37,684 bases of DNA from Blastocystis sp. subtype 4 (GCF_000743755.1 NW_014569472.1:1-37684), one strand, 5' to 3'; positions 42-30,958 are shown, counted from the first letter of the stretch. Translations and numbers: made by a program. Notes: generated from the letters alone by a model not told the origin.

Positions 42-170
42 TGTAGTCTTTTTTCAAATCGCAAGATTGTGTTACCAAGTAATCCATTCCTATCTCTAGG
101 GAACTGATGAGTGGTATTGAAAACTTAGAAGCACCTATGATCTATTATACTATGAAGTAATGAGATTCAA

Positions 171-178
171 AACAAACA
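171..178 (-). terminator. TGTTTGTT polyadenylation motif of the giant gene
   Basis: Plus strand aacaaaca at 171-178 reads TGTTTGTT on the minus strand, 15 nt after the TAA at 194-196. Confidence 0.75.
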
Positions 179-193
179 ATCAAATACATAAGC

Positions 194-3100
194 TTACTCT
201 TCATCCTGGTTAACTGAGGTTGCAATCACGAACTCAGCAGTATCCTCTTCGCTAATTCCATAACCCTTGAATCGGAAAGTCTTCTCGGTTCCACACACTA
301 ACACTCTGCTATCTCCCTTGTTCACCTCCACAGGGAATAATGCCTTCAAAGACATGGTGATACCAGTATCCATAGGTTCCTCATCCACATACTTCACACA
401 CATATTCAGTTCCACACCTTCAGAATGCTGATCGAAGATACCCACGAAGGCTCCATTCGTCACAGCAAACTCCTTGAACACATTCTCACATGTCGAAGTT
501 GTGAAGATCACGTTGCTCACCAACTCAGGATGAGAACCAAGCAGACGGAAGTTCTTGCCCTGAGACACTACAGCTGACGATTTACTGTAACCATCAAGAG
601 ACTCCAGAGCATTCACCTCTACCACTGTCACTAGCAGGATGGGATTATTATCAGGTGTCACACTGACATCATCCTGATCCTCGAAGTGGACACACAGCAT
701 CAAGGTCTCTTCAACGGCCTCCTGAACCATCAACAAAGCCTTAGCATTTGAGACAGGCGACCATGCTACAGCACTTGAGTTACTGCAGACAGCACTAGCA
801 GGTACAAGATAGGCAGCATCCAGACGATCCACATTGGAGCCGGAGAAGGTGTACTCCTTCGGACTATTGACATAGAGTAGATTCTTATTACCAGGAGCCA
901 TCACAGAAGATACATACAGCACGTCCACAGGCCACTCCTCATACAACACCCAGAAGTTATCCTCACCGTTGCCAAAGCCGTAGCACACATTCAACTGAGG
1001 AAGCCTAGGAGTCTTTGTCAGAGTCCAGGTCACCATGCAGCCTTCCACATCCTTCTCATCCTCCACATACTGATTGCAATCTGTGCCACTCACCAAACGC
1101 ATCTTATCAGTGCGTGTAATGTTAGGCGCCACATTTACAATCCAGATCTTCTGGACATGAGGAATGATCTCATACACTTCACCACTGTTATACTCATCCG
1201 TGATAGACAAGAGACCACGAGACTGCATTCGAATTGGCATGTAGGGTGCTCCATAGGACTGATCACTCATGGATACCCACTTCTTACCACTGAACTTGTA
1301 ACACAGTTTCCAATCATGTTCTTGTGTCGATACCTCTGTGAACGAGAACTCGTGATGCATGGACTCACCATCCCATTCCATGGCTACACCCTCATCAGCA
1401 TCTTCCATACCCATAGCAGGCGCAGTAGCACAGTCCGTAGTTTCATCATCCACCCACTTGTAACGACTCTCATGAACCATAGTATCCGTAGTGAAAAGAC
1501 GCAAGTTCGCAGTCACATTCTTTACAGCCCACAGGTTAAATGAGTCACTGTAAGAACCACCCAATCGCACTCCATTGGACACGACTTCAGCACTAAACAC
1601 ACCCAGAACAGTGAGATTGAACTGTGTGAGGAAAGGAGTGGCCTCTCCCTCGAACCAATAACAAATCAAAATACGTCCCGCTGTCGCCACAGATACATGG
1701 AACTTGCCCTCTGCATCCTTCTCATAATAGTCATCGAGTGTCACATCGTTCACGCAATCCTCAGAAGTCTTACCCTCATTAAGAGGGTCAGGAAGTGGGA
1801 AGATACGGTCACCAGGGAACACCATACCTGTGATTGTAATCTCGTTATCCTCATTGAACAAGACAGCATCGTTACGAGCTCCATCATCAACAATCAACTC
1901 ATTCACAGACATCACCATTACCACCATGTCATCATATATCATAGGCTCCTCATTCACAAACTGATAACACAGCTTGTAAGGCTCCGAAGCAAAGTCAAGA
2001 CTGAATTGGACAATACCATCAATGACCTCCATCCACTCACCAGCATCACAATTGTCACCAATCACCATCTTCGCCATATCACCAACACCAGCACCAATAG
2101 CTTCAATACGATAAGAACGAGGGATGTTGGCTGTCACCTTAGTGTTGTTACCATTCAGAGAAATGAAATCCAACACTGTCTTCGTTGTGAAAGCACTCAG
2201 AGCGAAGCGACGATCCATACCAGCAAACACATAACACATCTGGAGAGCAGACTCACTAGGCTCCGATAAGGTTACATTGAACGTCTTCTCTGTACTAACA
2301 GGCATCTCATAAAGGATCTCACCCGAGCAATCGACTCCTTCCACAAGCACCACCATGTCACCAATTCCAGCAAGAGAGGAACCTTCCACAACAAACTCCT
2401 TCTCCTGGTCGACCACAGCACCACTGCTAGAGAGAGCAGGGACCACAGAACGAACAGCAGGCACAGAACGGACAACGAATGAATACTCCTCATACTTGAT
2501 TGGAGCCTCGGACACAGTACCAGTAGTGAAGACGTAACATACATCATACTCCTGTTCTGTCTCAGCCTCCGTGAACTGATACTGGATCTTGTAATCCGTA
2601 CTCAATTTCTGGGTTCGGATAGCATTCAAACACGAGGATCCAGCAGTCACAAACATCACATCATCATTAGCAGACAAACCGAATCCAGTGAAGGCCACAG
2701 TAGACTCCTCTGTTTGTACGAAGACAGTTACAGGATACTCAGGATGATCTACCACTTCAGCACCCGTGATACCCTTCACAGAGAAGCTCAATACATCATA
2801 CCGCACTCCAGGTTCTGATCCGAACACATAACAGAGATACAAGCTAGATTGTGTTGTAGGCGCATCCACCATCACTGTCGACTCGAAGGCAGTCTCAGTA
2901 GCATTTACAGGGAAAGCAAACTCAGCATTCTCACAGTTAGTATATGTGAACATCACCGTATCATTAGCGCTGAGACCCACTCCTGTCAACTCCACCACCT
3001 TGGGCTGACGAGCCACAAGCACTTGAGAATGACCCGAAGCAAAGGCGGCACCTGTGAGTGTCTTCACATAAATCGGATACAGAGACACAAAGAGGTCATC

Positions 3101-6100
3101 CTCAGCGAAGCGGAAGCACATCGTAAGGTCCATGGTTGTGTACACATCCTCATTGAACTGGAAGCGGAGTTCGTGAGACTCGCCCAGTACCATGTTATCA
3201 AAGGCTGCAGCCACAGCAGGACTGCTGCAGTCTGCTCCCTCTACGACCTTAATGATATCCTGCGCTGTGATCAACACACCCGAATACACCAAAGTCTTTT
3301 CTTCACCCTTCACAAACACATTCTTTGCTCCAGCAGAAGGTGACACTTCAGGACGACCAAATACAATCAGATAGAAAGGACTACTCACTCCATATTCTCC
3401 CTCAGGTCCATAATGCATCCAGTCATGACCAGCGAACTGATAACACAACTGATAAGGAGCCTCTTCTGTGCTCTCCTCCGCGAAGTAGGTATCCGCCTCC
3501 AGCTCCTCATTCAGAGTGTAGAAGGATACAGACTGCGATACCTCATTAGGATCTCTCATGAAGTCCACCTCCTCATCACAACCATGGCCAGAAGGCACGA
3601 ATTTGATCTTGTCTCCAGCAGCCACTCCAATACCCGAGAAGGTCAGAGTCTTGGGTCGTAACCAGATAGCAATCGTATCACTACCCGAGGTAGCATTCAT
3701 CGTCATCAGTCCCTTCACCGTCAATGCATAGTTCTCATACAGGAAGACTTGGTTACCAGCGAACTTATAGCAGAGCTTCAGAGCAGTCGAAGTAGGAGCA
3801 TCCATAGATACAGCGATGTATGTAGCATTTGTCACCACATCAGCTTCCACAGGAGTCGAACAATCCGATTCTTCAGTGAACCAAGCACTATCATCCTCAC
3901 TGGCTCCTGATATCTCAGCAGGCACCTCAGTGTACTGCTTTGCAACCACAGATCCCGATTCGAATGAAGTCACTCCCTTAATCATCAGATCCCACTTTGC
4001 AGGCTGGAAAGCACCATTGCTTCCGAGCAACAGTGACTCCTCACCAGCGAACACGTAACACAACTGATATTTCTCTCCATTGCTAGTCGAATTGAACGTC
4101 AGACTCATAGAAGTCTCTGTACCAATGTACAAATAACCGATCTCCACGATCATCTCGTTCGAAGGACAACCTGTAACCGTAGGAGTAGCACTCTCAGGCA
4201 CGAAGTAGAAGTAATCGTCCGCATTCACATGACTACGCTGGAAGTAGAAGGTCTTGGTCTGACCAGCCACAGCACTGCTCACATCCATGTCCTCATCTGC
4301 AGTCACCGTCAAGGAATACAACACATAGGCAGTCGGGACACGCACAAACTCTTCTGAACCGAACTTGTAGCACAAGTAGATCTCTCCCGAAGCCACTTCG
4401 TCCATCACCTTCACCGAGGTCATCTGACCCTGGAGAGTAATCGAAGTAGCAGTCTCACCATTCACCTCAAGAGACAGAAGTCCAGAACATGACTCGCCAG
4501 CTATGAATGCTAACATATCACCAGCAGCGAAACCATCAGCAGTCACTCGGACAGGCTTCTCGTTATGAGCCACGAAGAAGGAGATATTCGTCTCCTGCAT
4601 AGTGTCCAAGAAGGCAGTGAAAGCCTTCACAACTACGTTGAACGTAGGATAGGGCACCACATTCTCTGCATTGGTTCCGTAGTGGTAACAGAACGTGTAG
4701 CTCACTCCGTTACTTCCAGTTGTAAACATATAAGTTGTTGTGAACACTCCATTCTCGCTCATCACGGGGAACGAAGCCACAGCAGGCGAAGAGCAATCAG
4801 CAGTAACATGGAACGACACAGCATCACCAGCACGCAGACCTTCACCCATCAGAACCATCGTCTTTTCCTGATTGGCCACAGCCGTATTGATATTGCCTTC
4901 TCCAGACACTGTCACAGAACTGAAGTCCATCACAAAGATAGGCTCTGTAACAGCCATAGCACCTTCCATACCAAACGAATAGCACAACTTCACACTCTTG
5001 CCAGCAGCAGTTTCACTGAATATGAACTGAGCATTCTGTATTGAAGTTGAAATCATATTCATTGTCACTGCAGCCAAAGTCGTCTCCTCTTCACAGTCCT
5101 CTGAACTCTCCACGAACCACATTGAATCAGCATCTGTGAAGCCATTTCCATTAATCAGAGCAGTCACCGGCTTGCCTACCACAGCATAACCAGGCTCACC
5201 AGACATTGTCACAGAAGACACATAGACCTGTGTAATAGAGAACGGATATGTCTTAACAGGCATAGTATTGAAGCGATAGTTCATCATCATTGGTTCCGTA
5301 GTCGTCGACTCCGTGAGAGACAGCGTGAATGTACCATTCTCAGAGACAAGGAAAGTCTCCGTCGACACGGTGCCCACATTGTAGAACACCTCATCATTCT
5401 CCTGAATCCACGAACCATCCAACACGAATGTCTTGGGAATGCCAACCACCACACGATCTGGAGCGCCCATCAGTGGCTCCACATCCGTAATCTCTCCAAC
5501 ACGCATTCTGTAGTCCATACCACAGTCCACAAAACTAGATCCTCCAATACTGTAACAAAGCTTCAACATATTGTTATAGCCCTGAGAGAACATCCAGCTC
5601 ACAGTGTTCTCACTGTTCAGTACAGCTGAAGCCACAGCCTCATCCGAGCACGATGTCTGCACGTATTTGAACGACTCGACAGCATCCATTGAGAATGTAG
5701 CCTCGCTCCAGGTCTGCACAAGAGTACAGATTGCCGCTGATAATGTCGTCACACGAATCGAGTAGCTCAGTTCACCAGTCTGGAGAGCTGTGACATCCCA
5801 ACCCGTTGTGAGGGAATTGAAATCAAATGTGTACTTGCCATCAGTGCTGATCAAAAGCGATTGAGTCATCAGAGCAGTTTCTCCAGCATACACAGTCACA
5901 GTCCATGTTGCAGTCGCGTACTGCTTCACTTGGACGTGCACGCGGAACAGTTCGATAGCAGGCAGTATATTTGTGATATGATCCGAAGTGAAACGGAACT
6001 CAGCATTAGCTGTCGAAGCACTCACCAGAGTCACTTCACCACTCTCCTGAAGCACAGTATCTAGAAGTCCATTCACGATGAATCCATTGTTGTTCATCTC

Positions 6101-9100
6101 CACATAGCGAGGCACACGAGTCTGCATGAATACAGAGCCCTTGGTTGTGACGTATGATATCACATGAGGTTGATTGGCCACACTGAACCACACATTCTGC
6201 TCAGACGACTGAGATACAACATAAGCACCAATGATATCCATCGAATATGTACTACTCTGGACACCAACACCTGTGAACATGTAACAGAACTTGAACGATC
6301 CCGTCCTCTCTGTCGTGACTACAGTTGAGCATGTCTCCTCAGTACATGTCACCACAAAAGGCTCCATAGCTGCCTCAGCAGAACACTCCTTATTCACATC
6401 GACCAACTTGAGGAAATCTCCACTCTTCATATTCACTCCAGTGAACACCAACTCGTTATTCATATTCTCCATCATCACACGAGACACAGAACCACTCACA
6501 CGTGTCTGTGCAGGTACCACTTCATGAACATTCACTTTGAATGCATCATAAGCGAAGAAGGCATCTCCAGCAAAGGCATAGCACAGCTTCAACTGATCCA
6601 CAGTACCCGAAGTCATTGGCAATGTTACATCACCCTTATAGACATTCGTATTCGTTGAGACAGGCATCAAGGAGGTAGCATGAACCATCTTCACCACATC
6701 ATTCACCTTCACATCCACCTTGCTTGTCAAAGTCATACGATGTGTATCAGGCTTATAATCCGACACATACACATAATGACCTCCAATGATGAACGGAGTC
6801 AATCCAACAGCAACTCCATCAACCACAGACGACTGCATCGACTTGAAGTACACTGTTATATCACTCTCGTCGTTCAGCTTCACCACTGTCGCAGTACCAT
6901 CTTCAGTCTCCAACACTTGCTCCACGAAAGTGTTCGGTAACACATCACCAAATCCATCACTGTAATCATTTAGCGTACTCACACAAGGCTGTGACACTGG
7001 CACGAACTTGAATTGATCATTCTCGCTTGAAGCACCTGCAAACGTCAGAGATGTTGTGACACCCGTAATCAGATCCAGAGTCACCTCCGTCTGATCATTC
7101 ACACTCGTCAGCTCATAGGCAGTGAAAGGCCAACTATAGAACACAGGGGACTCAACACCGAAGTAGTAGCACAATCCAACTGTGCAGGAAGGCATTGAAG
7201 TCAACATCAGAGAAGCAGTCAACGATGCATCCAGACTGACCACAGGAGAGAGAAGAGTCTCACAACTGCAGCCAAGAGCAACCTGATCATTCTCAGCAGC
7301 TCCCTGAGCAGCAGAGAATGAATACACCTTCTCTCTCTTCACAACTACCTTCAGCTTGTCTCCAGTATCCACACTCATGCCATCAACACTGGTGAAACCA
7401 AGAATTGACAGACGTACAGATGTCTCAGCAGGCTTCTCCGAAATGAACTTATAGCAGAAGAACCAGTTCGAGTTGGTAGCAGATACTGTATCCTCAGTAT
7501 TGATTGTGATTGTTGTCAACAGATGGGTTCCATTACTCACCACAGGGAAGCTCATCTTATTTGAAGCGTTCACATCTGCACACGACGAGGAGGCCACAAC
7601 CACACTATCTCCTTGAGCACCTCCCTCCGACTCAATCACGAACTGCTTTGGCACAGACAACACCACCACATCGTTAGCTCCCTCCACAGCATATACATCG
7701 GTGAAGCTCTTCACAACCATCGTAATGGAAGGTAGATACAGAGCAGGTTCCGAACCGAACTTCATACATCCGAAGAACTCAGTGTTGACAGCCGTGAGAT
7801 CAGTGTACAACACACTTACGTACAGAGTCGACTGTTGTGAGACGATGTTGCTGAACTCCGTCAGAGACTCACACTCTTCTGCTGAAGACACGAATGCGAA
7901 ACGATCACTACTATCAATATTATTGCCTGAAGGGAACACCAATCTCTTCTCCACATTGAGAACTGCAGTATTGAGACTCTGCTCCCTATCTACCGATGTA
8001 CCTTCTAACACACCCACGAATCCAGGCATGTGCTTCACACGGATGGAATCACCCGTAGCAAACGGAGTCTCATTGTCAAAGGCATAGCAGACATAGCAGG
8101 TCTTGCCGGCTAGTGAGCTTGGCAGATCCAGAGTGTATTGGTACTGAGAACCAGAACGAGAACGAGCCACCACTGGAGCAGTGTACACATAGGCAGAAGC
8201 ATTCTGACACTCATTGGAGTCCAACACAAGATGGACTTCATCATTGGTACTGTATCCATACGATCCATCTGTATCCGTCAAATAGTAGACCTTTGGAGTA
8301 TTCATCACAAGCACATTCGCAGCTCCCTGGGACACTGAATCAGGACCATAGTACTGCTTGATAGTCACCTGTGTAGCATTGTAGCGCATCCAGTTCTCAT
8401 TCACAAACTTGTAGCACAGAGAGAATGTCTTTCCAGCATCCTCTGTAGAGAAAGCAGAAGGAGCATAGAAGGAACCATTCTCCTCCACAACACTCGTAAA
8501 ATGAGCGATACCACACTCCTCACCATCTGTAGCCCATCCAGCCATATCACCAATAGCCAAACCACTGCCAGAGAAGTAGAACATCTTTGTATGACCAGCA
8601 ATAGCAGTCGTACTGCTTCCAGAAGTCAAAGTAGCATCAATACCAGTGATAGCAGACACATGGAAGCGTCCACTCACCTTATCATTGAATGCACTCAACG
8701 TAGAGAACTGATAGCACAGACCAAAGTCATCGCCAGCAGTCACATATTCCAGATCCACAACCACAGCAAAGGCATTATCAATCTCCATTACTGAAGTCTT
8801 AAACACACGTCCATCCAGGGCATTTGCAGCCACACAACTTGCCGATCCTCTCACCAAATACACCGTATCTTCGTAGGTAGCACCATTACCACGGATCTGG
8901 AAACGCTTTGACTGACCAGCAACCAAGCCGCGATCATCCATATTGTCCACAGAAGTGAACGACAAATCTCCAGGCAAGGTAATACGTAATGAATAAGGAT
9001 AACTCTTCCAGTAACCAGAATCCTTACTGAACCAATAACAAGCGTGTACATTATCACGAGACTCTCTCGAGAAATGAAGAGTCGATGAACACAAGTTGCT

Positions 9101-12100
9101 GTTGTCAGGACAAGTCACAATCGAAGCCTGAGGATCATCTTCTGGATGAACCACTTCAGGCAAGCGACGACCGAAACCAGTATGCACATCACACTCCTCA
9201 TTATTGTTGATAAACTTGATGTAGTCTCCAGTAGCGAGCTGCATACCATACAGGTTCAGAGGCTTCTCACCATTCGCCACCGCTTGATCCACAAAACCGT
9301 CCTGATCCACCAGGTTACCAGTCAGTCCGTACAACTCAGATACCGTGAAGGTGATCGAAGGATACAGCTGAGCAGGATAATTACCAAAGACGAAACACAA
9401 CTGGAGAGGCTGGCCAACAGTCAATCCCACTGTAAGGAACGTCACCTTGAAGGTGTTACTCGAGAGAGCAGTCACATTCATGCCCATAGCCTCCTCAGGA
9501 GAACAGACTGTTGCTGTAGCAGGTACTGCATAGAAGGTATTAACAGAAGACACGAACTCCACAAGCGTAAACGTGATCTCCTTCTCGTAATCAACCACAA
9601 ATCCAGTGATGCTTCCCTTATCCACAGAAGCAGCAGCTATCACAGTGTGTACAGCTACACGCACAGTTGGCACCTTATAATAGACATAATCGTCACCAGT
9701 AGCAATAGTACTCAAGTACATGTAACACAGCTCGTACTCCTTTGCCTCCTCGAAAGTGAAGTCACCATACGTGAACGTCTCCGAAGCATTCAACTCCTTC
9801 TCGGTAGAAGCATTACACTCAGTACCAGCCTCCACGAAGTAGGCACGATCCGCATAACGCAGACCCACACCATGGAACTGGATTGTCACAGGCTGATCCT
9901 TCACAACCATGATGGTCTTAGCAGGATCTTGTACACCCTCCACACTCAAGGTTTCCACAGCTACAGCATGGAAACCATTGTTACGAGAATACCATACATT
10001 GCTCTCCACAGGCTTTCGGATATAGCAGACAGTAACATCCGAGTTCGAGGTCTTGAAACCCACAGGTTTAGTAGTGCGAGTTACGCCATCAACCACCTCC
10101 AACTCATACTCATTGAACAGTTGCAGCACGAACTCCGTTGAGGAATCAATTGTTTCTAGGAACTCCACAAATGTAATTCTCTCAGTAGTCACACTACTGA
10201 TCGTCATCTTGTAAGACTTCTTATCGTTACGGTTCACCACAATCACCTTATCACCAGCAGCCAACAGAGATGTGAAATCATTGCCGTTAGTCACTGCCTC
10301 GTGCTGCTCACTCGGCTCACTTGTCGCAGGCACGAAACTGATAGTCATTGTCTCAGGCAGAGGATATCCATACTCCACACAAGGATTCTCGCTTGTGAAG
10401 CCAGTCGGGTTCTTTACGAAGCGGATACGATCTCCATTCTGAGCCACACCTCCAGATGTCAGTGTCAATGTGACCACCTTCGATTCACCAGCAACCACAC
10501 GCTCCGGCTGGATGGCTGACAACATCGTAACATCTACACCTCCAGTGTAGTTAGGAATCGTTGTCCATTCATCCTCTTCTGACACCTTGTATCTCATGCT
10601 GTACTCTCCAAATGGCAATCCGCTTATTACAGCAGAACGTGAACAAGTATCCAGAGGCATTATAGTAGTGAAGCTACCACACTTCGATGGGTTGCTACAT
10701 ACCAGACTCACAAGAGGCTTGATATCCGTTGAAGAAGCATAATCACAATTCTGTCCCACAAATATCGGATCCGAAATGGTATAGAAATCATCTGCCACTG
10801 ACTTATGGAAGTGCATCTTAATGAAACGACCCTTAGCATCCAAACCATAGAAACCATTCAGAGATTCAGAAACAGTATTAATATTCATTGTCTTCGATGG
10901 AGACCATGGTCCCTTCAGACTGTTCGAAGATTGGCTCTCCATACTCTGCACACGATGGTTCATCTCTCTCGTTGGTAACCAGTACAACTTATTAACCTTC
11001 ACACACTTCACGAAATCAGGCATCATCCAAGCCTCTTCGCCAGGTCCCAGCTTTCCAGTCGAGTCCATAGCACCATCAGTCAGCATTTCGTGGAAGTTCG
11101 ACAAGTACATGAAGTGACCACCAATAGAAGGACGATCACTAATGTTAAAGGACATTACTGACTCTGGCTTGCAACGATCCGATACAGCATCGAACGAGAT
11201 TGTAAAGTCGCTTCCAGTAGAGTGATACAGTCCTCCGGTACTCTCATTCTCCGTTCCAACCACAGGATAACCAAGATCATACACCTCCATCACAGTGTTG
11301 GGATAGAACTTCACCACAGACTCGTTGAACATGTAACAGAGAGACTTAGTACGAGCTCCATAACTCGACACCACTGAAGCCATTGTGAACTTGGTCGATG
11401 TTGTCTCCACATAATTGCTACCCGACAACTCATAGAACACCACCTTCACAGGCTGAGAACCAGCAGGGAATTGATCATAAACGCCATGCAGAACAATGGT
11501 ATGTGTGTACGTCTCACCCACAGTGGTAGGACAGAAGCTAGGATGGGTAGACTCCACCTCCGCCGACTTTACACCCACAAACTCCGATGCCATCGCCTCC
11601 AGATCAGCAATCGTGATTGAGGACACTTCCTTCATGACACGGCTACGAGTGAAGCTGATGAACTTGCCACTTGAATACAATGCCGACATCTGATTGTCTA
11701 AACGGAGAGCCACAAGCAAACCCTCAGTGGTCGAGTAAGCCTCATTTGCAGTACAAGACAGTGAGAAGGTGAAATCCTTGTGTGTATTCTCAGTGAAAGT
11801 CATCTGAGCACTGCATTGTCGAGAAGAAACGACACAGTTAGACACCAAGGTCGAGTTCTCCATCAGTTTCTCCTTTGTACACATCTCCTCCGAATCCACA
11901 AAGGCCATACGATCATTGGAGCCAACACTTCCACTCACAATGACAGTCTTAGGAACATCCGTAGCTGCCTGGCACTCGTTGATCAGACGCTTGCGCTCCA
12001 CCGTTACACCAGCAGCAACCTCTGACAACGCCAACACACAGTTAGACTCCATGGAAGCATCACTACACTCATCATCCAAGAACACAAAGAGATAGGTTCC

Positions 12101-15100
12101 CTCTGTAGCTGAAGCAGACACATAAGTAACACGCACAGCTCCGAAAGAAGGCATATTCTGGGCCATCTCAGTCTGTGTGTAGTCCTTGTTTAGTGTGAAA
12201 GACAACACAGAACTATCTTCACGTGTATAGGTCATGGTCACAGTCTGAGGAGCCACAGTGGTATCCACAGTTACACTCCATTCCACATACTTCTTGCAAC
12301 CCACTGTCACATCCTCAATATCTGTTGGCTTTACAGTCATCGTGATGTCAGCGTAGTGCTTCGTCTGAGCACTGTTCTTGAACTCGTAGCATAACTCATA
12401 GAACTCACCTTCAGCAGTAACAGGAGTGATCGTATGAATCGATATGAAATCGCTCACACTACCCACAGAAGCATTTGCAGATGTACAGGTCTCACCATGA
12501 AGAATCCAACGAGCCACATCGCCATTGGCAATACCCACACCCGAATACACCATTGCACTTGGCACACTGTCGTACACATAATCAGGAGTAACAGCTGTAA
12601 CTTCCTTAACAGAGATCAACATACCAGTAGCAAGCACAGACTCGTCGAAGAACTTGTAACATACCTCTACAGAGCCTGATGCCTTGAAGCCGAATTCACG
12701 AGATACCGTTGTAGGAGCATCCGTGAAGTCCACTTCTGTCTTCTCTGTGCCATCCTCCCACACTAACTGCACAGGTTCAGCACAATTTGTACCCTCTGCA
12801 GAGAACCACATAGTATCTGATCCACCCAATGGCACCGATTCCACTTGCACTCCATAAGGCTTTGTCATGTCCTTCACAGCAATGGCCACATCGCCAACAG
12901 TGGTAGTAATACTCGTGAAGCTGATCACATTCTTCACAATGTCTCTATACATAACCGTGGGGAATCCGAAGAACTGATAACAAAGAGCATAAGAACCCGA
13001 AGTCTTCTCCGTCTCAAGACGATAAGTAGAGTTGCCCTCTGACACCACAGCAATATCATAGTTCATGTCCAAACAATTTTCAGCAGTAGAAGGCACGAAG
13101 AAGACACGGTTACCCACACGATTAACTCCGTTTCCTTCCACTTTGAAACTCTTTGGAATCGATTTAACAAGAATCGTATCAGCACCTTCACCTTCAGTAG
13201 GCATTGCACTCACAGAATACACCTCCACCAAGAATCCCTGATCGTCATACTCCGTCCAGGCAGAGCCAGTCATGTAACAGAACTTGTACTGTGTCTCCTC
13301 ACCCGTGAATGTCCATACGAACGATACGACACGGTTTGCTGAAGCAGTAGCCTGTACACCAGCACTGAGATCCAGGTTCCAGCAGTGTTCACTCACAGAC
13401 ACGAAGGCGAAACGATCGGTACTCTCCATGGCCGAACCCTCCACAGTGATCGTACGAGGAAGATCCCGTACAGCATCCTGAGGTGTAATTGAAAGAATCT
13501 CACGCAACTGAATGGTGAGCGAAGGATACATCTTCCAGCTCTCCTCACCGAACTGATAACAAAGATTCACTGCAGTGATACTACCATCCAAACGCGAGAA
13601 GAAGAATTTATGTGTCATCGATTCCTCCATGATATCCGACTCCTCAATGACATCCGAAGCCACAATGTTCTGCGTACAATCAGTCTGACTACTTGACACC
13701 CAACGTACTCTGTCTCCAGAAGACACACCAATGGTATCAAAGTCTACAGTCGTCCACTTGTTGTAAGTAGCACTAGTGGGGGTAATACTGTTGATGGTGT
13801 GCATCTTCAGTATCACATCAGGAGCCAGTACATAATCAGCACGGTTATGGAACTGGTAACACAAAGTCAAATTAGAAACAGCATCCAAGAAGGTTAGTTC
13901 GAAGGTAGTATCCTCAGCAGACACCGTCACAGCCTGACGAGCCGTAACATCCTTGTAAACAATGGTGGCATAAGCTGTAGTGTCCTCACAAGACATTGAT
14001 GGCTGCACGAACCAGAACTTATCTCCAGCAGTCACTTCATATCCAACAAACTGGAACCTCTTCGGTACACCGACCACAACATCATGAGCTGATCCTTCCA
14101 CGCCACGCAGATCATCGATATGATACAACTTGAAGGCAGCCTTCTCTGAACGAGCAAAGTCTTCATAACCGAACTTGAAGTGAGGCTCAATCATCACGTC
14201 ACTAGACAGTCCTTCCATAAAACGCACCTCCTTCGTGGCACTACCGAATCCCTCGACCAAAGGATCCTCATTCACCATTACGACCGTACCAACGTCCTGA
14301 GCATCCTTAAGACGTGAGCGCAATCCCTCAATCTTCTCCTCATCAGTAATTCTATTCTCATTATCCGCCTCAGGCAATGTGGTGAATGCAGGAAGACGGT
14401 CACCAGTTCCAGATGTAGCACCCACAACCTCAAGGACTTCATCGCTACCCTGAGCAGTAAACTTCACCTCATAGTGAGCCTTGCCCTTCTCCAGATCGAA
14501 ACCCTTTACAGACATGTGCTCACCTCTCTCATTCAAGAAGGTAGCAGACTCCTCGTTGTACTCAGCAGAACCCTGAGACCACTGCGTCTCGGTCATCTCA
14601 TAGACAGTCATACGGAAAGATACAGGCAGATTACCATTAAGATGTGAGTTAAAGCAATAGTAGAACTGATGATCAGGAGCCGAATACGAATTGTCTTTGA
14701 AAGTGACCTTGAAGTAGAGATGCTTCATAGAATCCATCAATAGAGGTGTGTACACACCATCATTCTCCTTAATAGGTACCATATCTGTACAATTTTCCGT
14801 ACGAGACCAACCAAGATAATCATCCTCAGTCAGACGAGATCCAATAATGTTAAACACCTTCTCAGCACCCACTACAGCCACGCCATCGTCACCAACCTCA
14901 CGAGGATAAATTGATATCACAGAGATGGAATAGAACTGATACTTGGTATAAGGCTTCACTTCGGAAGTACGGTAGGAGTAGCAAAGATGATATTCGTCAC
15001 TCTGAGAATGAGGCTGGATTATGAACACATTGTTCTGATGCTCGCCAACGATCACTGAGCTCTGGTCATTATTCATCAAAGGCAAACGATCCTCGATATC

Positions 15101-18100
15101 ACTGCATGAACTACCATCCTTTGACAGCCAGAACTCTCCTGTAATGAGACCACTTCCATACAGACGCAATTGCTTCTCCACCTTGTCGGGGAGCATAGCA
15201 TAATGCATATTCAGTCCCTCAACATGAAGAAGTTGAGCTACCTCCGTAATCACACTGGTCTGCAGAAGCACTGGATCCAGACCCTCCGTTACATAACACA
15301 GATTTACATTCTTCGCAGAGTTCATAAACGTGACCGACACTGAACCTGCCATCGGAGTAAACGTCATTCCATCAATCTCTACGATACTACTTTCATCACA
15401 CTCAGAATTAGTGGTGAAGTAGCATTTGTCCTGCATCGTCAATCCACTAGCCACAAGCACATTCAACGAGGTGCTGAAGTCAGCCACTACAAAACTAACA
15501 GGCTCCAGCTGGAAGTCAACAACACGCACTGTCATTTCAGGATAAGCATGATACTCTCCTTCTGCCAAACGCAGACACATCATGTACTCAGAAGCAATCT
15601 CACCAATCAAAGTAATCTCACCAGAGATAGCTCCAGCAGCAAACTCACTCTCTCCATCAACTGTAAGGATGTTCACGCTATCACATGTCTCTCTAGCATC
15701 CACAAACTTCACCTTAGCACCTTCAACAGCAGCACTCAAAGTCACATTCAACGAAGCCTCCTGATGATTGGCAAAGATTCTAGGCTGGACATCCACAACA
15801 GCAACCACATTCAGAACCACATCGAAAGGATAAGTAGGCTCATTTGCGAACTTGTAACAAATACGAGCAGTAGAAGGAATGCCCTCCATACCATCCAGAG
15901 CCGAATGAATTGTCACTTGATTAGTCTCCAGATCCACTTCATCCACAACAGCGAACGAGTTCGCATCCTTGAAGGATGAGAACAGATTGAACAGCTCCGT
16001 TCCATCTTCCTCAGTATAGCCAGTAGTAGGGACATCATAGAACTGAGCACTCTTGACAGTTGAGTGGAATTTTTCACCATTCTTAGAATGATAGAAAGGA
16101 AGGCGCTCCGTTTCCTCACATGATGTAGCACTGGTCTCCGTCCATCCATACGAATCGCCCTCACGCATCATATAACCAGACACCTGTACATTCTTCGTCT
16201 GACCCTGGATTGTCTGTATTGTGACCGCGTTCAGAGAACCCACAGTGTAGCAGAATCGTTTCATCAAAATTGTATCTGGCGAGTTCTCATAGTTGTAACA
16301 CATAGCGAAGCAACTAGCATTATGGTTCATGATCTCAGCAAAGGCAGAAGACTCCTGAATAGTCATGGAGAAATGACCATCAGCATCCACAGTGACACTC
16401 TTGTCACCAGCTTCATTCAAAGCAATCAGATTCTCCTCGTTGCAAGTGAGTCCAGCAGTCAGAGATACTCTATCTCCACTGCCTGTTCCATAAGTAGTAT
16501 TCACAGCAAATGTCTTAGTATGACCCACAACCAGGAAGAAGTTATCACCATAATCCGAAGTGATACTGGCTACACCCTGGAACACAAGAGTCACCATGAA
16601 GTAAGGATGGAAGACTTCAGGTTCGTTCTTGTAAGCGTAGCACAGCTTGTAGACTCCTGACGATGTCGCATTACTAAAAGCGAATGCCACACGCTCCTTA
16701 TCAATGTCTTCCTCTGTTACAATAGGACTCTCAAACAGAGGAGGATCATTTTCCTCCATCATGTCGCAACTTGTATAACTTTCAGGAACGAACTGGACAC
16801 GATCACCAGCATGCAGATTAATACCCATAACGCTCAGACGATAGTTCTCTGAAAGTGAGAGGGAGATCGACTGATACTCCTGACCTCCATAATACAATCC
16901 ATTAACAGTAGCTACTTCAACAGAAATATCATATAACTTATAGGGCTCTTCATCGAACTTATAACACAGCTTGTAATCCTTCATACTGGCTTCATCGAAA
17001 CTGAGTTCCACAGAGTGGTTTTCATCCACCTTCTTATCAGGAATACCATTGAATGTAGCATATCCCGAATCACAACTATCACCAGTTGTGTATCGCACGA
17101 AATCTCCTTCCTTCACTCCAGTACCCGTGTAACTAAACACGGATGGCACTCCCTCCACAGCTAATACACGAGAAGTGGAAGTAATATCATACACAGAGAT
17201 AGCATACTTGGCCATGAAGGAATATTCATCATCCTCAAACTTCCAACACACTGTCAAAGTTCCCTCCTCAGCTGTAGGAACCATCAAATCCTTCACATAG
17301 GCCTCAATTGGGTTGCTACCATACACAGTCTCTTCCACCACAGTCTCACTGCTGCAGTCGGTACCACGCACCAGCTTCAACTTATCCTTATCACTGAATC
17401 CAAAACCACTAATGGTCCATGTCTCAGGCACACCAGCCACCAATGTTGAGTAAAGACCCTTGTTTGAGATGATGGAGTCAATACCCACAACTGTCATCTG
17501 GAAGTTTGGATACATCTTGAATGGCTCCTGACCGAACTTGTAACATAAAGAGAACTTATTGTCAACTCCAGCATATGAACTCTGCAGGAAGGTCATAGAA
17601 GTACTGCTTCCAGTCACACGCAAAGCACTAAGACTCTCCACAGACTCGGCCATCAGTTCCGAGACTCTTGTTGCCAACTCACTTCGACTCTTCTCAATCT
17701 CCACCAGATCCCCAGAATAGTCACGAGCCTCAGAAGCACTCACCTGTGATAACAAGGCAGTCTTACCATCACATCCCTCGTCACCATAGACCCACTTTGC
17801 GTACTCCTCAACTCCCTCGTCATGACCTCCACTCACAACAAAATCGAATGATTTCTCAATATACATCACTGAGACACTATTTGAACAATCTGTGCAGACA
17901 GCATTCATTTCAAGGACATCGTATACACGCATTTCAATATTAGGTACACGGTACCAAGGCTGACCCTGGAACTGATAGCAGATATAATAGGAACTGGCAG
18001 CACCCTCGTTAAACAGAATAGTAGCATCCAGCTTCTCATCCACAGAGATAGTATTACTCTCGAGAACTGAGCAGTCCTCCACCTCGCTGAAACCGACCTT

Positions 18101-21100
18101 ATCCATAGCTTGCACTCCATAGTTCTGCTCACTGGCAAACTGCAGATTCTTGGCATTTCCAACCACAGCAGTGGTGTTCGAACCCACATCAGTTGAGATC
18201 GTTTCAACTGTCATCACTTCGATCGTCATCAGCGTAGGATAGAAGAGAAGATCGGAACGAGAACGATAGCAGACAGTGAAAGGCATCTTGAACACTTCAG
18301 AACCGGTAACAAAAGCAACATCGAAGTAGTATCTGGCTCTATCTGCATCGTACAGGATTGGAAGCTCCTGGACATCCCGAGTTGAAGAAGGAACTCGCAG
18401 ACGAGCTAGAGTACCAGAACAATCACCATTCATGGCGAAACTCAACAGATCGCCTTCCTCAAAAGCTCCCTGTACGTTCCACTTCTTCATCACACCCTTC
18501 ACAGCCACACGATTCATACTGTAACCCATTTCCACCTCCTCACGAGTCCACCAAGGAATGATCTCCTCCACAGAGTGTGAAGTGATAGTCACATCCTTAT
18601 AATGGACAGTGGCTTCATTACCAAAGATCATACACAATGAGAAGTTACCTCCACGCAAGAAACGAATATGAGCCTTTCCATCAGCATCGATAGAAGCAAC
18701 TGTGCCAGTCTGACCTGTTGTTAAGTCCACCATAGACACCAGATCGCTAGAGCAATCATTGCCACTGGTCAAAGAGAAATGATCGGGAGTCGAACTCACA
18801 CCCAGATTGAAACCATAGAAACGAGCCTCACTATCCACATACGTCACGAAGGATTGCTCCCCATCTGTATTATGGATCGCGTTCACACGAGCAATACGGA
18901 ACGGGAAGTCATATCGCTTTGGCTCCTCATTACCGAACTGATAACAAAGCGACACCAACTCCTCATAGCCTTGAGTGAACATCACTGATGTGTAATGCAT
19001 ACTGTCAACAGACACCACATTTTCATCATATAGATGGTCACTGCTGATTGGCAAGGCATACTTGGTACGACAAGGACGATCACTCTTCACCCAGTAAGCG
19101 CGGTCTCCAACATTCACTCCATAACCAGTAAACTCCACATCTGCCTTCGACCCAGCAACAATTAGATACTTATCATCAATCTTTTCATCTGTACTGTAGC
19201 TGCGAGCATCATACAGATCAAAGACACGCATTCGAATATCCTTATACAAATGGAATGGCTCCTCGCCGAACTTGTAACACAGATAGAAGCGTTCATCTGA
19301 TTGCTCTGATGAATCCATAGCGAAGCTGAATGTAGCACGACCATTCACATCCACACTCACAGAATGAGCACTTGCATCTGCATTCTTCAAAGCGTTCTTC
19401 AAACGATCAGCACGAGACGTGATCATCTTGTATCGCTCAGCTTCATCCTCCTCCACTGAATAAGAGAGCATATTCGTCTCCACAGTCATGGAGGACATCA
19501 GAGGCACCACCTCTGAATCACAAGAATCACCACGCACCCAGCGAATTACATCATTGGACTTATCCGAAATACCCGTACCAGTGAACTGAACAGTCTTAGG
19601 CTGATCCACAATAGCCAAATCATCAGTATCAGTTGTCGACACCGTTGTCATTCCCTGAATCTTCTTCACCGTCAACGAGAACGCAGGATAAGCATGATAA
19701 TCTTCATTACCATGCTTGTAACACAGAACTGCAGAATCCTGAATTGTCTCATGGAAGCAGAAAGTAGCACTGCGGTTCTCATCCAGAGACACCTCGGGAT
19801 GCTTCTGATCCGCCCCAAGTCCATTACACACCGAACCCCAATACACCTTATCATTTACACTAACACCCAAACCATTGAAAGTATAGGTCTTGGGAGACTC
19901 CACAACCATGACATTGGCAGAACCATCGCTTACATACACACTAGTCAGACCAGCAACCGTGACGAATACGGGCATCTTCACGAAGTAGTCCAGATCCTTA
20001 AACTTGTAACACACTTGAAGAGATCCCGAAGGAATGGCATCCACCTTCATCGACACCTTAACGTCCTCCGTCACATAGAATGTCTTGTTCTCGAAAGGAG
20101 TCTCACACTCATCATCACCATGATTGACGTAGCGTGAACACATAGGAGAATCCACATCACGAGGAGTGATCAGACGGATCTGATCTCCTTCGCTAAGACC
20201 ACTACCGCTCAACACCAATTCCTTCTCAACGCCTCCCACCAACACTACAGAAGAATCCCCAGTACTCGAAGTGAATCCATCGAACTTGTGGAAGAACGTC
20301 GTAAGAGTAGGATAATCGATTGTCTTAACATTGTTCCAGTGGTAGCACAAGCTATATTCACCTCCTTCAGACTCCTTCACAAGGAATTCAGAGGAAGCAA
20401 GAGACGAAGATACACCTGACACAGGAGCACGATTCACCAGCTCCTCACGCTTGCCATCAATAGGCAGACTATCAGTACTATTCATACAAGATCCACCAAC
20501 TACCTTGAAGGACACTGAATCGAAGTCCGTTGATCCCTCTAAAAATCGGAAGTAATCGATATCCATCTCTGGCTTATACAAGCATCCAACAATCGCATGT
20601 TGATTGCGAATAGAAAGCACATCCAGACTATATATGGTGATCGAAGGATACTCCTTCGCCAACTCCTGACCAAAACGATATGACAGATAGTAACGACCGT
20701 GTACATCAAACTTCACATCACAGCTGGACTGGAGATTAATTCGAGACACCACACCAGGCATTCGCACAGTATTATCACTTTCTAGAATCCATTCAACAGA
20801 ATCACTGAGAGTATACTCTAGGGGCCAGATACCTGAGAACACGTAATTCATTTCTGGTTCACCAGCATATCCTTCCATAGGTGTCACACCAGTTATGTCC
20901 ACTACATTCATCGTGAAGTGATTGAACCTGTAGTATTTCGAATCCAAGTCGTTCGCGAAGTGGTAACACAGCACTTGAGAGGATACAGAAGGTTCTGGGA
21001 ATATCAGACGCACCTTCAACATGGTCGAACTCTCCAGAATCTTATCGTTCGTACTGATGACAGTATTGCTAGCCAATGAAGGGTCACAGGCTTGGCCATA

Positions 21101-24100
21101 AGGAACAAAGAATAGAACATCATAGAGCGTCAACGAGTTACCTGTGATTGTAAACCACTTGTTCTGATTTGCAACGATAATATTCTTTGCCATGGAAGGA
21201 ACAGTAGCTTCCACACTCTTCAGACTCATCACAGTAAACCGGATGTTAGAATAATGGACGAACACACTACTATTAGCGAACTGGTAACAGAGGGTCCAGC
21301 TGGAACTAGGCTCCAAATCCGATACAAAGGCCATCTCAACCGTTCCATCTTTCTGTACCGTCAGGGTATTCACAGTTACTCCATTATGGATGAACGAAGC
21401 AAAGTCTCCATTATAACAATCTTCACCGCTCTTCAACACACGCACAAGGTCGTTCATCTTGATGGAGCCAGGTGTTCCTGTCACCAGAACCGTCGTAGGA
21501 TATCCAGCCACGATTTCACGAGGAGTTACATCGACCACACTGTGTAAATCAACCTTGATATCAGGATAAATCTTCCAAGGAGCTGACCCAAACTTGTAAC
21601 AAAGAGGAGCACCTAGGTTGGTATAAGCAGGATTGTATGTGAACATGATATTGGTAGTCACCTTGTTACCCTCCGAAAGACTCACTTCACCAACAGCACC
21701 ATTACCAATAGTCATGTGATCCACAGTGGATGCCAACACAGTAGCGGCAAAATCCTCACACTTATCTGTTTCAGGGCACGTCTGAATCGAAGTGGCTACA
21801 AAGTCGAATGTTGTGTGATCCACAGCTGTAGCCACAATCGACTTTCCTTTGTTGTTACCATCGAAGATAAAAGATGTCAGAATGAAAGCGAAGGAAGAGG
21901 AAGGAGTAGAGAACACATACTCACGGTTCAGCTCAAAATCGCTGAAAGAACAAGCAGAATCAGGATTCACAATCTGGAGAATACCATTCACATTATCATA
22001 GATGAAACGCTCATTATCACAGGTCGTAACCGAAGTACACTTACGGCAAGAAGGACTCGATGGCAAAACAACCTCCAGCTCTGGCTGAGGTCCAGCAGGC
22101 TCTACTACCGTGATCGTGAACTTGACCGTGTACTGGCCGCTACGCTGAATATGCACAGAAGCCTTGTCGATGGTAGGAAGCTGCTCCATCTTGGTAGCGA
22201 CTTTCAACTCCGTATCATCCACATAGATAGGAACAGTGTTCACACCATTACTCTTAAGAACAAAGGATCCTCTGTGAGTCACCTTATCGAACTCAAAGGT
22301 AACAGTCTGTTTATCCTCAATAGAACCGAACGATTGACTGGATGCACTCCAACAGTCACTATCCTGGGTAGAACCAGGCAAAGCAAACTTGACACGATCA
22401 CCAGAATTGCCATACACAGTATCAAACTCCATAGGAATACTTATATGAGAAGCTACAGAACTATTAGCCATTGAACCCACATTAGCGACACGTATCTGAA
22501 TGGTATCAACCTTCATAGGATCCACAACACCACGAGGACTCGTGAAATCAAAGCACAGATCCTTCAGTCCTGAGTCGGTGAAGGCCTGGATGGTCGAATG
22601 ACCGCGAGAGCTCACCGACCAGAAGTCTCTACTATCAGTACAATTCTTTCCTGGGTCCACCCACAGAGCACGGTTCATGTTGTCAGAATCAGCCTTTGAT
22701 CCAATGAAATCAATCTGGATCACACTTGTGAACACAGTGCTTCCCCAGTTCTTCGTGATCAACAAACGGAAATAACGAGCTGTGGAATCGTGGTCCAAAT
22801 CCCAGTACATAAAGTTACCCTCTTGGGAATTGTCTCGTGGCATATCCTTTACAGACAGCACCGTCTGCCAAGGAGCATCCATCTTCGCAGAGTCGGCATC
22901 AAACAGACAGGAATCCTCATAGCACGACACCAGACGTTGGACCTCAAAATCACGAGGCAACTGAGGGAAGAATACGGAATTGATGAACATACCAAACCGA
23001 TGGAGGGTAGTGATATTCTTCAGATCGTATATGATCCAATGATTCAAGCCACTGGAACGACCACCATTCTCAAAGGCGAAGATGGTATCCATGGGATTAT
23101 CGAAGGGCATAACAGTCACATATGGACCATGCGAAGCTACAGCACGGCCACTACAATACTTAGCATCCTCAGGACTATTGCCTCCAGTCAAATCTGCATT
23201 CGGAGTCAACTTGTAGTACGTCTTCTCACGCTCAGTATCATGAATACCATAACCATAATATTCAATGAGAGTCTGCATACCCTTCACAGCAAGAGGTATC
23301 TCACTTGATACACCATTAGCCTCCACATACGAAATCGACGATACAGACACACTGAAGGAGAAAACAACCGCACTTCCTTCAATAAAGGAATACACAAGAC
23401 GATAGTCACCAATCGCTGTGAAGGTCACTGTACCATTGCGCTCAGCCGAGGAAGTCTCACCGAAACTGACAATAGCACGATCACCATTCTCATTTACATA
23501 ATAGGCAGAATCCAGAGCATTCAGTCCAATACCCTTCAAGGTAATCGAAGTTGCCGCGTTAATGATAGCTGTATTAAATGCAATAGATCTCACTCCCACA
23601 ATGGTTGTGACCTCAGACACAGTACGGAAGGTAAAGACATGATTCAGATCGAAAGGGGTTTCACAAGCAGCCATATGATAGAGAAGATGGTACTCACCAT
23701 CATCAGCAGGACTCAGCACACGGATGCTAAACACAATACGATCTCCAGTCGATGTGACAGTCCGGACAGACGACTCAATTGAAAGTGCCTCACCATTCTG
23801 AACGAAGGAAATAGCATCATTCGAAGTGAAACGAGTTCCAGTGATCTCTAAGTCTTGTTGATAATTCTCATACAACTGGAAAGAAGATGGTGTGATCTCA
23901 ACAATGGTGATAGTCCTCTCAGAGAAGGATATGCACAAACCACTGAAATTGGCAATCACATGATAAAGACCAGTCTGAGTGAAAGTAGTATCCACCGTGT
24001 ACATACCATCTGCAACACCTGATACAATACCAGAGCCAGCGATCAAGCCCATTTCATTACAATTTCCATTAGCAAAGTAGACTTCATCACCGATACCCAG

Positions 24101-29918: not shown

Positions 29919-30958
29919 ATGGTTCTCACTAAGTTGTCGTCTTATATGTAGACTTCCTTTCTAGTTTTTGGAAAGAATGGTTGGATTGGTGGAATGGTCA
30001 TCAAGCTACTTCAAGAAAAGGGTTACACAGTAATAGAAGCAGAATCTAGGTTAGAAAATGTCCAAGATGTAGCGGCTGAACTGGATAAGGTGAAGCCCGA
30101 TTTTGTGATTGATGCCGCAGGTCTTGTTTGAAACACTGGTGATGACCTCATTGGATAGACAGGAAGACCCAATGTTGATTGGTGCGAGTTTCATAAGGAA
30201 GATGTAGTTCGGTAGAGTTCTTTATTTTGTTTGATTTTAGCGTAAATGTCGTTGGAACGGTAGCTCTGGCAGATGCCTGTTGGAAACGTCAGATTCCTTG
30301 CACTATTTACGCTACTGGTTGCATTTATGAGGTAGATTAGTGATTGTCAGATCATTAGTAGTATGACTCTGAGCATCCAATGAATAGTGGTATTGGTTTT
30401 ACTGAGGAAGAGGAGCCCAACTTTAAGGGTAGTTTCTATAGCTATACCAAAACATTGGCTGAGAAGCTACTTCGCGTGTATTCAAATGTGTTACTATTGC
30501 GTGTTCGTATGCCCATCTCGGATGATTTGCATCCTCGCAATTTTATTACGAAGATTAGCAAATACGAGCGTGTTGTGAATATTCCCAATTCAATGTCTGT
30601 GCTTCACGATCTTCTTCCTGCTAGTATTGAAATGACTGTTCATGGTTTGAAAGTAGTGTTTCGTGTTTATTTAGACGGGTAGGGTGTGTACAACTTCACG
30701 AACCCGGGTGTCATTTCTCATAACCAGATTCTTGATCTGTATAAGCAGTACATTGATCCGAACTTCACCTACAAGAACTTCACTCTCGAAGAGCAGGCCA
30801 AGATTCTTGCTGCTGGACGTTCGAATAACGAATTGGATGCTACAAAGCTAGTAGAAGCATGTAAGGAATTCGGAATTGTAATTCCACCCATTCAGGAGTC
30901 GATTGTTGGTGTCTTTGAACGCATGAAAGCAAATCTAGCTAAGTTACGTGTTTATTAG
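29919..30958 (+). CDS. UER1: Bifunctional NDP-4-keto-6-deoxyglucose 3,5-epimerase/4-reductase (NRS/ER, UER1-like; L-rhamnose biosynthesis)
   Basis: Introns 29922-29951, 30126-30158, 30212-30240, 30332-30361 and 30653-30682 give MTSFLVFGKNGWIGG...AAGLTGRPNVDWCE...ATGCIYEYD...GSFYSYTK (YxxxK)...LRVRMPISDDL..RNFITKI..YERVVNIPNSM...GVYNFTNPG. The real stop may be poly(A)-generated at 30944. Confidence 0.93.

Follow-up and report, generated by a model that had tools for sequence, protein, structure and literature searches.

The DNA analysed here, a stretch of 37,684 nucleotides from Blastocystis sp. subtype 4 (GCF_000743755.1 NW_014569472.1:1-37684; the whole stretch is called the window), holds on its minus strand a gene for a giant protein of 8,533 residues (amino acids, aa), which is a chain of about 63 tandem repeats of ~98 aa each with a pair of cysteines. 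We consider it likely that at least seven of the repeats of this transcribed protein, and probably nine, carry a module inserted in a loop, the two halves of the repeat likely closing round the base of the insert. An initial annotation had proposed that accessory domains lie inside the repeats, and this was borne out by a split test against reversed-sequence nulls: to judge from the sequence, insertion within the repeat is firm in seven units and probable in two more.

For the repeat, a hidden Markov model (HMM) of 98 positions was trained on the regular units of the protein itself, and it gave 71 matches in the protein. When this model was run end to end in a Viterbi parse with a free long-insert state, 66 units were obtained, 53 of which scored above 20 bits; the best unit in the reversed sequence scored 12.7 bits. 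An earlier parse with cheap local entry and exit was dropped, as the array was shattered into 124 fragments. The identity of the 36 clean units to the first of them was 10-30%, and one Asp and two Cys were almost invariant. Among 64 parsed units, both conserved Cys were present in 57 and neither in 4, and the remaining three were discordant (Fisher p 1e-4); two of these three are the "units" that a tandem reading makes of the region designated A. A disulfide presumably links the two conserved Cys of the repeat. Furthermore, both Cys of the split unit designated B (window 22496-22681) were replaced together in the orthologues P0008, P0009, and P0010, as is expected if the pair forms a disulfide.

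In the split test, one copy of the repeat model was forced over a segment with one free insert, and the raw score was compared with those of reversed-sequence windows of similar length. Nine units passed with 27-89 bits, the null maxima being 17-23 bits (Table 1). The flanking pieces of three of them, namely unit B and the units starting at aa 4597 and aa 6525, filled each other's missing part of the model from both sides, and these pieces of 22-32 aa cannot stand as domains alone. Three other units, of 140-146 aa, fall short of the length of two repeats. In both units split before the strand with the GD motif, the N-terminal piece was significant by itself and the orthologous pieces scored alike: aa 821-853 of unit B alone gave 9.9 bits, which was reached by none of 1000 shuffles and none of 773 reversed windows (6.9-13.8 bits in the orthologues), and aa 6524-6552 alone gave 13.5 bits, which was reached by 1 of 1000 shuffles and none of 774 reversed windows. 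As a single interrupted repeat, unit B (aa 821-1100) scored 31.2 bits, a value that no null window reached (0/150), and unit A (aa 1101-1419) scored 61.1 bits, against a null maximum of 23.4 in 40 windows. For the unit at aa 4597-4840, the null maximum in 40 windows was 21.4 bits and the hhalign probabilities of its pieces were 92.6% and 76%; the corresponding probability was 99.2% across the insert of aa 2048-2193 and 95.6% for aa 3188-3327. The units at aa 5087-5279 and aa 6229-6425 have exactly the length of two repeats, and for this reason we call them probable, not firm. Six of the seven interruptions named in the initial annotation were recovered as single split repeats, namely units B and A and those given as 11400-11780 (aa 4597-4840), 10120-10330 (aa 5087-5279), 6690-6930 (aa 6229-6425), and 5690-6125 (aa 6525-6766). 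The other one, at 10750-11175 (tested as aa 4841-5092), gave 9.3 bits, which 108 of 150 null windows reached. The three shorter splits at aa 2048-2193, 2629-2771, and 3188-3327 had not been named.

Insertion sites were counted within 3 bits of the best score, and they clustered in three loops of the repeat model. Two units (B and aa 6525) are split at positions 27-31, before the GD-x-V-x-F strand; six units (A and aa 2048, 2629, 3188, 5087, and 6229) at positions 44-60, after the first Cys, the placement of unit A being taken from its structure model; and one unit (aa 4597) at positions 75-77, before the strand with the second Cys. The sites in A, aa 2629, and aa 3188 are loose, with positions 71-77 scoring almost as well (likewise no more than 3 bits lower). 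Among the 53 good units, small differences in length were found after position 48 in 20, position 60 in 10, position 70 in 6, and position 27 in 3. On these alignments the sites are non-random, and the three correspond to the length-tolerant loops of the repeat. Mapping on the repeat model therefore upheld the expectation that insertion points are not random; the two positions that had been proposed, just before the D-x-V-x-F strand or just after the first Cys, became three.

Table 1. Features of the giant gene, ordered along the protein after the two rows for the gene itself. The gene lies on the minus strand, and coordinates were converted by aa = (25795-nt)/3+1, where nt is the nucleotide position in the window.
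Feature	Residues (aa)	Window	Strand	Basis
Single open reading frame (ORF), 8,533 aa + stop		194..25795	-	open frame
Stop codon (194-196) and poly(A) addition site (183)		183..196	-	contig of run X1
N-terminal CBM32/F5-8-like domain	55-265	25001..25633	-	hhalign to insert B; sub-threshold Sad1_UNC
Unit B, N-terminal piece, model positions 1-30	821-852	23240..23335	-	repeat model
Insert B, CBM32/F5-8 type C-like	853-1038	22682..23239	-	structural match and sub-threshold Pfam
Unit B, C-terminal piece, model positions 31-98, both Cys	1039-1100	22496..22681	-	repeat model
Unit A, N-terminal piece, first Cys aa 1148	1101-1158	22322..22495	-	repeat model and structure
Insert A, predicted alpha+beta domain holding an inner beta-barrel (aa ~1252-1341, ~90 aa)	1159-1364	21704..22321	-	AlphaFold2 model
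Unit A, C-terminal piece, second Cys aa 1398	1365-1419	21539..21703	-	repeat model and structure
Split unit; 45-aa insert aa 2109-2153 (19337-19471)	2048-2193	19217..19654	-	88.6 bits
Split unit; 39-aa insert aa 2692-2730 (17606-17722)	2629-2771	17483..17911	-	52.7 bits, 0/150 null windows
Split unit; 53-aa insert aa 3231-3283 (15947-16105)	3188-3327	15815..16234	-	31.2 bits, 0/150 null windows
Segment	3736-3892	14120..14590	-	8.5 bits, reached by 23/150 null windows
Beta-rich segment, between a complete unit and the next	4491-4596	12008..12325	-	parse
Split unit; 142-aa insert aa 4677-4818 (11342-11767)	4597-4840	11276..12007	-	58.6 bits
Segment, not supported as nested	4841-5086	10538..11275	-	no Pfam family at E<=1
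Probable split unit; 86-aa insert aa 5142-5227 (10115-10372)	5087-5279	9959..10537	-	27.0 bits, 0/150 null windows
Probable split unit; 98-aa insert aa 6281-6378 (6662-6955)	6229-6425	6521..7111	-	58.1 bits
Split unit; 150-aa insert aa 6552-6701 (5693-6142)	6525-6766	5498..6223	-	44.7 bits

We modelled unit A (aa 1101-1420) with AlphaFold2 from 15 sequences, with a mean predicted local distance difference test score (pLDDT) of 74 and a predicted template modelling score of 0.57. The core (model residues 61-260) was mostly at pLDDT 75-93, apart from one 10-residue block at 69, and the flanks were at 34-72. All 50 matches that an all-against-representatives structural search listed for this model sort into nested ranges. 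Twenty-one of the 50 are single beta-sandwich or immunoglobulin (Ig)-like domains of ~90 residues, with 80-104 residues aligned, and run from model residues 1-4 to 318-320; these end-to-end matches include EBF1, EBF3, NF-kB p52, plexin C1, and RBPJ, several of them of the IPT/TIG type. A domain of ~90 residues spread over 318 residues must skip an insert of ~200 residues, so that the flanks form one sandwich in the model. Twelve of the 50 cover the range 36-60..262-265 and comprise the tail-tip chain of mycobacteriophage Bxb1 and ferredoxin-like folds; the match of insert A to the Bxb1 tail-tip chain 9d93_Ma had Z 10.3 and a root-mean-square deviation (rmsd) of 2.6 over 103 aligned residues (range 59..264), and that to a Bxb1 capsid chain had Z 9.5. 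Sixteen of the 50 are small beta-barrels within 151-159..226-244 (8ck1_A, Z 7.0, range 152..241), and a single match covers 59-246. Unit A is predicted from this model to have three nested levels, in which the flanks form one sandwich, with an alpha+beta domain budding from the sandwich and a beta-barrel budding in turn from the alpha+beta domain. Unit A also obeys the Cys pair rule when it is read as a single split unit, whereas the tandem reading makes one unit with only the Cys at aa 1148 and another with only that at aa 1398. Foldseek gave no match to the unit A model at E<=0.001. Look-alikes of insert A in the Atlas scored at most 0.85 and were kept as a lead only.

Insert B was examined in an AlphaFold2 model of aa 730-1525, which was built from 10 sequences and had a mean pLDDT of 60; Foldseek with this 796-residue model returned nothing but loose alignments over long multidomain stretches, with a template modelling score (TM) below 0.17. 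The part aa 893-1034 (model residues 164-305) superposed on the CBM32 domain of EndoD (2xqx_B) with Z 9.0 and rmsd 3.0 over 109 of 146 residues, where the superposed part has a pLDDT of only about 50-69 and the Z score lies just above the stated background of 7-8. Over 20 other rows with CBM32, discoidin, or SUN domains followed at Z 7.2-8.7, including DDR1, muskelin, and SUN2. The Pfam family F5_F8_type_C (PF00754) matched insert B at positions 73-115 with 21.2 bits (E 3.3e-4) and scored 20.6 bits in the scan of the whole protein; its gathering threshold is 28.2. Insert B is predicted to have the CBM32/F5-8 fold, and the initial identification of this insert as an F5/8 domain agrees with the structural matches at the level of fold, its Pfam score lying below threshold. 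In the CBM32/discoidin fold the two chain ends lie close together, which suits insertion in a loop. The identity of insert B to its orthologues was 57-84%, against 35-57% for the flanking halves; the other inserts were not above the scaffold. When the inserts were compared with each other by hhalign, only the N-terminal domain and insert B were found to be related (probability 66%, P 5.7e-5, 143 columns). As for the remaining inserts, that at aa 6552-6701 gave a weak Pfam match to the StcE beta-sandwich and the others beyond B gave no Pfam match; the 45-aa and 39-aa inserts are helical-looking by eye.

The repeat itself was compared with known families and folds. None of the 36 intact repeats shared any Pfam family at E<=1, and this holds for TIG (PF01833), whose only match in the protein was at aa 443-489 with E 0.44. 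A sequence-profile search of the PDB with the repeat returned filamin-B only (E 0.73), that is, no sequence relative among solved structures. When an 800-residue query was searched against 1.84 billion representative proteins, 13 proteins were found, 12 of which were fragments with more than 50% identity; the sole distant match, P0063, had no match to the repeat HMM and was set aside. A search with the repeat profile in a word-indexed collection gave five proteins, all of them orthologous fragments. On these searches the repeat is an undescribed and narrowly distributed family. In the structure model, the intact repeat at aa 739-821 (pLDDT about 57-84) superposed on IPT/TIG and filamin-type domains. 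The best match was the C-terminal Rel-homology/IPT domain of NFAT1 (8r07_A; Z 8.5, rmsd 2.2, 80 of 100 residues), followed by 1imh_D (Z 8.3), 2uzx_B (7.9), and 3n50_A (7.5), with filamin, Met, EBF, and plexin among the matches; aa 1418-1525 matched 3okt_A and 3mlp_A, both at Z 7.3. These Z values are close to or just above the background of the search, stated as 7-8, and are consistent across rows. The fold of the repeat is predicted to be an Ig-like domain of the IPT/TIG type (E-set).

Orthologues found by protein search were collinear over thousands of residues with 42-88% identity, and one of them is named, 'hypothetical protein AV274_1609, partial [Blastocystis sp. ATCC 50177/Nand II]', which places the gene in a Blastocystis lineage. 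No paralogue was present among the related proteins recovered, all of which map to the same gene. In an alignment of 12 orthologous sequences every insert was present, and the inserts were conserved as protein (31-84% identity) in independent assemblies. Within the covered parts of this alignment, the sole indel of at least 12 aa was a 20-aa insertion at aa 1184 (window ~22244), inside insert A, in P0026, P0009, P0010, and P0008.

Transcription of the gene is shown by contigs from RNA libraries, which include the inserts. Its frame is uninterrupted for 25.6 kb. Contigs of run X1 tile 5650-25600 without a joint, and contigs of X2 (21908-23290) and X3 (22270-23486), which are recorded as RNA-Seq and give no expression level, span insert B and both of its junctions, likewise without a joint; the inserts are therefore exonic and not introns. 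One X1 contig stops at 183 and continues with 23 T on the plus strand, corresponding to a poly(A) tail that begins 11 nucleotides past the TAA stop codon. Accordingly, the protein terminates within half a repeat, at about model position 40, and a hidden 3' exon, for which the GTAAG at the stop codon had been considered, was ruled out.

Several observations weigh against the split-repeat interpretation. Pfam recognises no family in the repeat, and the F5/8 score of insert B stays under the gathering threshold. The halves of unit B and the first half of insert B were modelled at pLDDT < 50, so that the evidence for the split around the F5/8-like domain comes from sequence alone; of the expectation that interrupted units would fold as one domain, the part that stood is unit A, where the 21 listed matches use both ends. 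Even there, the halves have a pLDDT of 34-72 and their matches have Z 4.7-6.2, which is the background of the search. The structural ranges represent the first and last aligned residues only, and two insertion sites of unit A tie in score (positions 44-48 or 74-77). X1, the sole run with a poly(A) contig, was assigned to RNA by guess and could come from the same sample as the window. In the giant protein, neither an anchor nor a transmembrane segment nor a binding site could be recognised. Furthermore, the set of inserts is old and fixed across the orthologues, which misfits a 'plug-in' system with exchangeable content, and that part of the initial annotation, a modular display system, was not upheld.

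A competing view is that nothing is nested and that the protein is a plain tandem array with decayed repeats and unrelated domains between them, the apparent halves being the surviving ends of neighbours. In its favour, an unconstrained parse preferred two weak units in region A (19.3 + 31.2 bits), and the segments aa 5087-5279 (193 aa) and aa 6229-6425 (197 aa) may be pairs of half-degenerate repeats given their two-repeat length. Strong decay does occur, several N-terminal units scoring only 6-17 bits, and three segments are without assignment. However, decay does not account for flanking pieces of 22-32 aa that complement the other side exactly, and units of 140-146 aa have no room for two repeats. 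The tandem reading also yields discordant single-Cys units, whereas 61 of 64 units are concordant, and the unit A model shows three nested ranges. Moreover, the middles of both ambiguous units hold no repeat signal: the score for the missing half was reached by 36 of 60 null windows at aa 5087-5279 and by 11 of 60 at aa 6229-6425. We thus regard a plain array as improbable. An artefact, in which the inserts are unspliced introns or the ORF is an assembly chimera, is more improbable still, to the point that we give it hardly any weight. The organism has introns, as the neighbouring rhomboid gene lies in two ORFs, but the frame is open over the whole gene, the inserts are conserved as protein in independent assemblies, and the contigs described above pass through insert B and tile the gene without a joint.

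The protein would be secreted and would form a long stalk of roughly 0.9 MDa with ~63 Ig-like domains; the N-terminus of the ORF is hydrophobic and, as read by eye, resembles a signal peptide, which is putative. The split repeats would hold side modules off the axis of the stalk with their far faces free, and at least the two CBM32-like domains would bind glycans, so that the protein might be a fibrillar lectin or adhesin of the outer coat of the cell. The short helical inserts are perhaps hinges or contacts, not binders. Alternatively, modules are indeed nested in the repeats, but their role is structural: they serve as hinges, braces, or oligomerisation elements that shape the stalk or a meshwork, not as displayed ligand binders. 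Three inserts are only 39-53 aa, two of them helical-looking by eye, and the two CBM32-like domains are the only ones with a match to a known binding family. None of the inserts varies in presence among the orthologues, as expected of structural parts, and insert A matches phage capsid, tail, decoration, and FliD-type domains, which are mostly structural. On the other hand, the predicted fold of insert B is of the lectin type and its conservation clearly exceeds that of the scaffold, a second CBM32-like domain lies at the N-terminal tip, and the same topology marks ligand-binding domains in bacterial adhesins, as described in sections of one report (PMC12077191). We consider purely structural inserts unlikely, and a binding function of the inserts is what we infer by analogy. 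A further proposal is that Blastocystis independently evolved the design of bacterial fibrillar adhesins, with a lineage-restricted stalk of ~0.9 MDa, made of a new Ig-like repeat, from which lectin and orphan modules bud, one of them three levels deep; this single-copy protein would form the backbone of a fibrillar surface coat by which gut bacteria and mucus glycans are held. One paper (PMC5608401) describes carbohydrates in the coat of Blastocystis and the trapping of bacteria. We put this proposal forward as a tentative one with a low chance of being right in full.

The claim that inserts lie within repeats rather than between them was too absolute, because the segments at aa 3736-3892, 4491-4596, and 4841-5086 may lie between. 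As to aa 4841-5086, a third F5/8-like domain nested after a first Cys looked plausible by eye but was rejected on its null-like score in the split test, the lack of a Pfam match, and the lack of an hhalign link to insert B. The segment at aa 3736-3892 is possibly a decayed unit that holds a helical insert, although such a unit was not significant (Table 1); the parse had joined aa 3627-3892 into a single unit around a 158-aa insert, which was set aside as aa 3634-3735 is by eye a complete repeat. At the other end of the array, the three most N-terminal units (aa 541-820, window 23336-24175) score only 6-17 bits, two of them have neither Cys, and aa 541-633 keeps the first Cys only. By repeat score and Cys content, the array decays toward its N-terminal, CBM32-bearing end.

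Outside the giant gene, the window (26-37.7 kb) has a higher AT content and contains short, partly interrupted ORFs. One of these loci, directly upstream of the giant gene and in the same orientation, is a gene for a rhomboid protease in two ORFs (26895-27657, minus strand), which match the Pfam family Rhomboid with E 7e-5 and 1e-6 at profile positions 2-44 and 67-137, and which are presumably split by an intron. Rhomboids cut surface adhesins in other parasites; the giant protein itself shows no membrane segment. Two same-frame ORFs at 30380-30958 (plus strand), with no Pfam family at E<=0.001, are separated by one stop codon (30683-30685), a break that may be a very short intron. An ORF at 33735-34613 (plus strand) encodes short acidic peptide repeats of the E-N-T-E-V-G-P-V-like type and has no Pfam family.

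Blastocystis colonises about a billion people, and to our knowledge the means by which it attaches to mucus, epithelium, or bacteria are not known. A full-text literature search found no Blastocystis paper that describes the protein, and the main text of two Blastocystis genome papers does not mention it. The giant gene is an unstudied candidate, transcribed and present in all diverged relatives recovered. If the rule of split repeats holds as it does in bacterial adhesins, about nine modules among the 8,533 residues are marked for binding tests. If our interpretation is true, a eukaryote has also come upon the 'split domain' solution, using as scaffold an unrelated repeat, which forms a new family of narrow distribution.

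Among known systems, nested domains occur in integrin beta (hybrid/beta-I), complement C3 and alpha-2-macroglobulin (CUB-TED), and the flagellar cap protein FliD (D1-D2-D3), where loops of a beta-sandwich carry insertions, sometimes at several levels. Chains of C3, alpha-2-macroglobulin, and FliD were among the weak structural matches (TM < 0.25), which show no kinship. Whereas integrins, C3, and FliD have one or two nested sets each, about nine sets lie along a repeat array here. In its predicted fold, the intact repeat resembles the IPT/TIG and filamin-type E-set domains of plexins, Met, EBF, and Rel-family proteins, and by eye it has a similar sequence pattern, in which a hydrophobic strand and a Cys come after a G-x-G turn; unlike them, it has no family membership at the sequence level. 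Likewise, insert B resembles CBM32/F5-8 type C (discoidin) domains in its predicted fold, its matches including many galactose-binding CBM32 chains, but scores under the gathering threshold of that family.

In architecture, the giant protein comes closest to the bacterial fibrillar adhesins of the RTX (repeats-in-toxin) class with their 'split domains'. In excerpts of two reports (PMC12077191, PMC10865825), MpIBP, FrhA of Vibrio cholerae, and AhLap of Aeromonas hydrophila are described as having 'split domains' in a tandem chain of Ig-like extender domains, in which an interrupted Ig-like domain lets a lectin or other module, its two termini adjacent, project to the side; the AhLap beta-roll bears a budded vWFA domain that has an insert of its own. 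The Blastocystis protein is similarly a very long single chain with Ig-like domains interrupted by budding modules, in nine units by the split test and in unit A by the model; as in AhLap, budding is repeated in the unit A model, and insert B has the predicted fold of a carbohydrate-binding module. It differs from the RTX adhesins in its eukaryotic host, its polyadenylated transcript, and its unrelated, Cys-paired IPT/TIG-like repeat, and no Pfam family for RTX nonapeptide repeats or a type I secretion signal was found in the whole protein at E<=0.01. Its splits are spread along the stalk (aa 821-6766), unlike those of the RTX adhesins, which are gathered in a distal ligand-binding region. Taken together, these comparisons suggest that the giant protein is probably a eukaryotic, convergent variant of the split-domain design, built on an undescribed repeat family.

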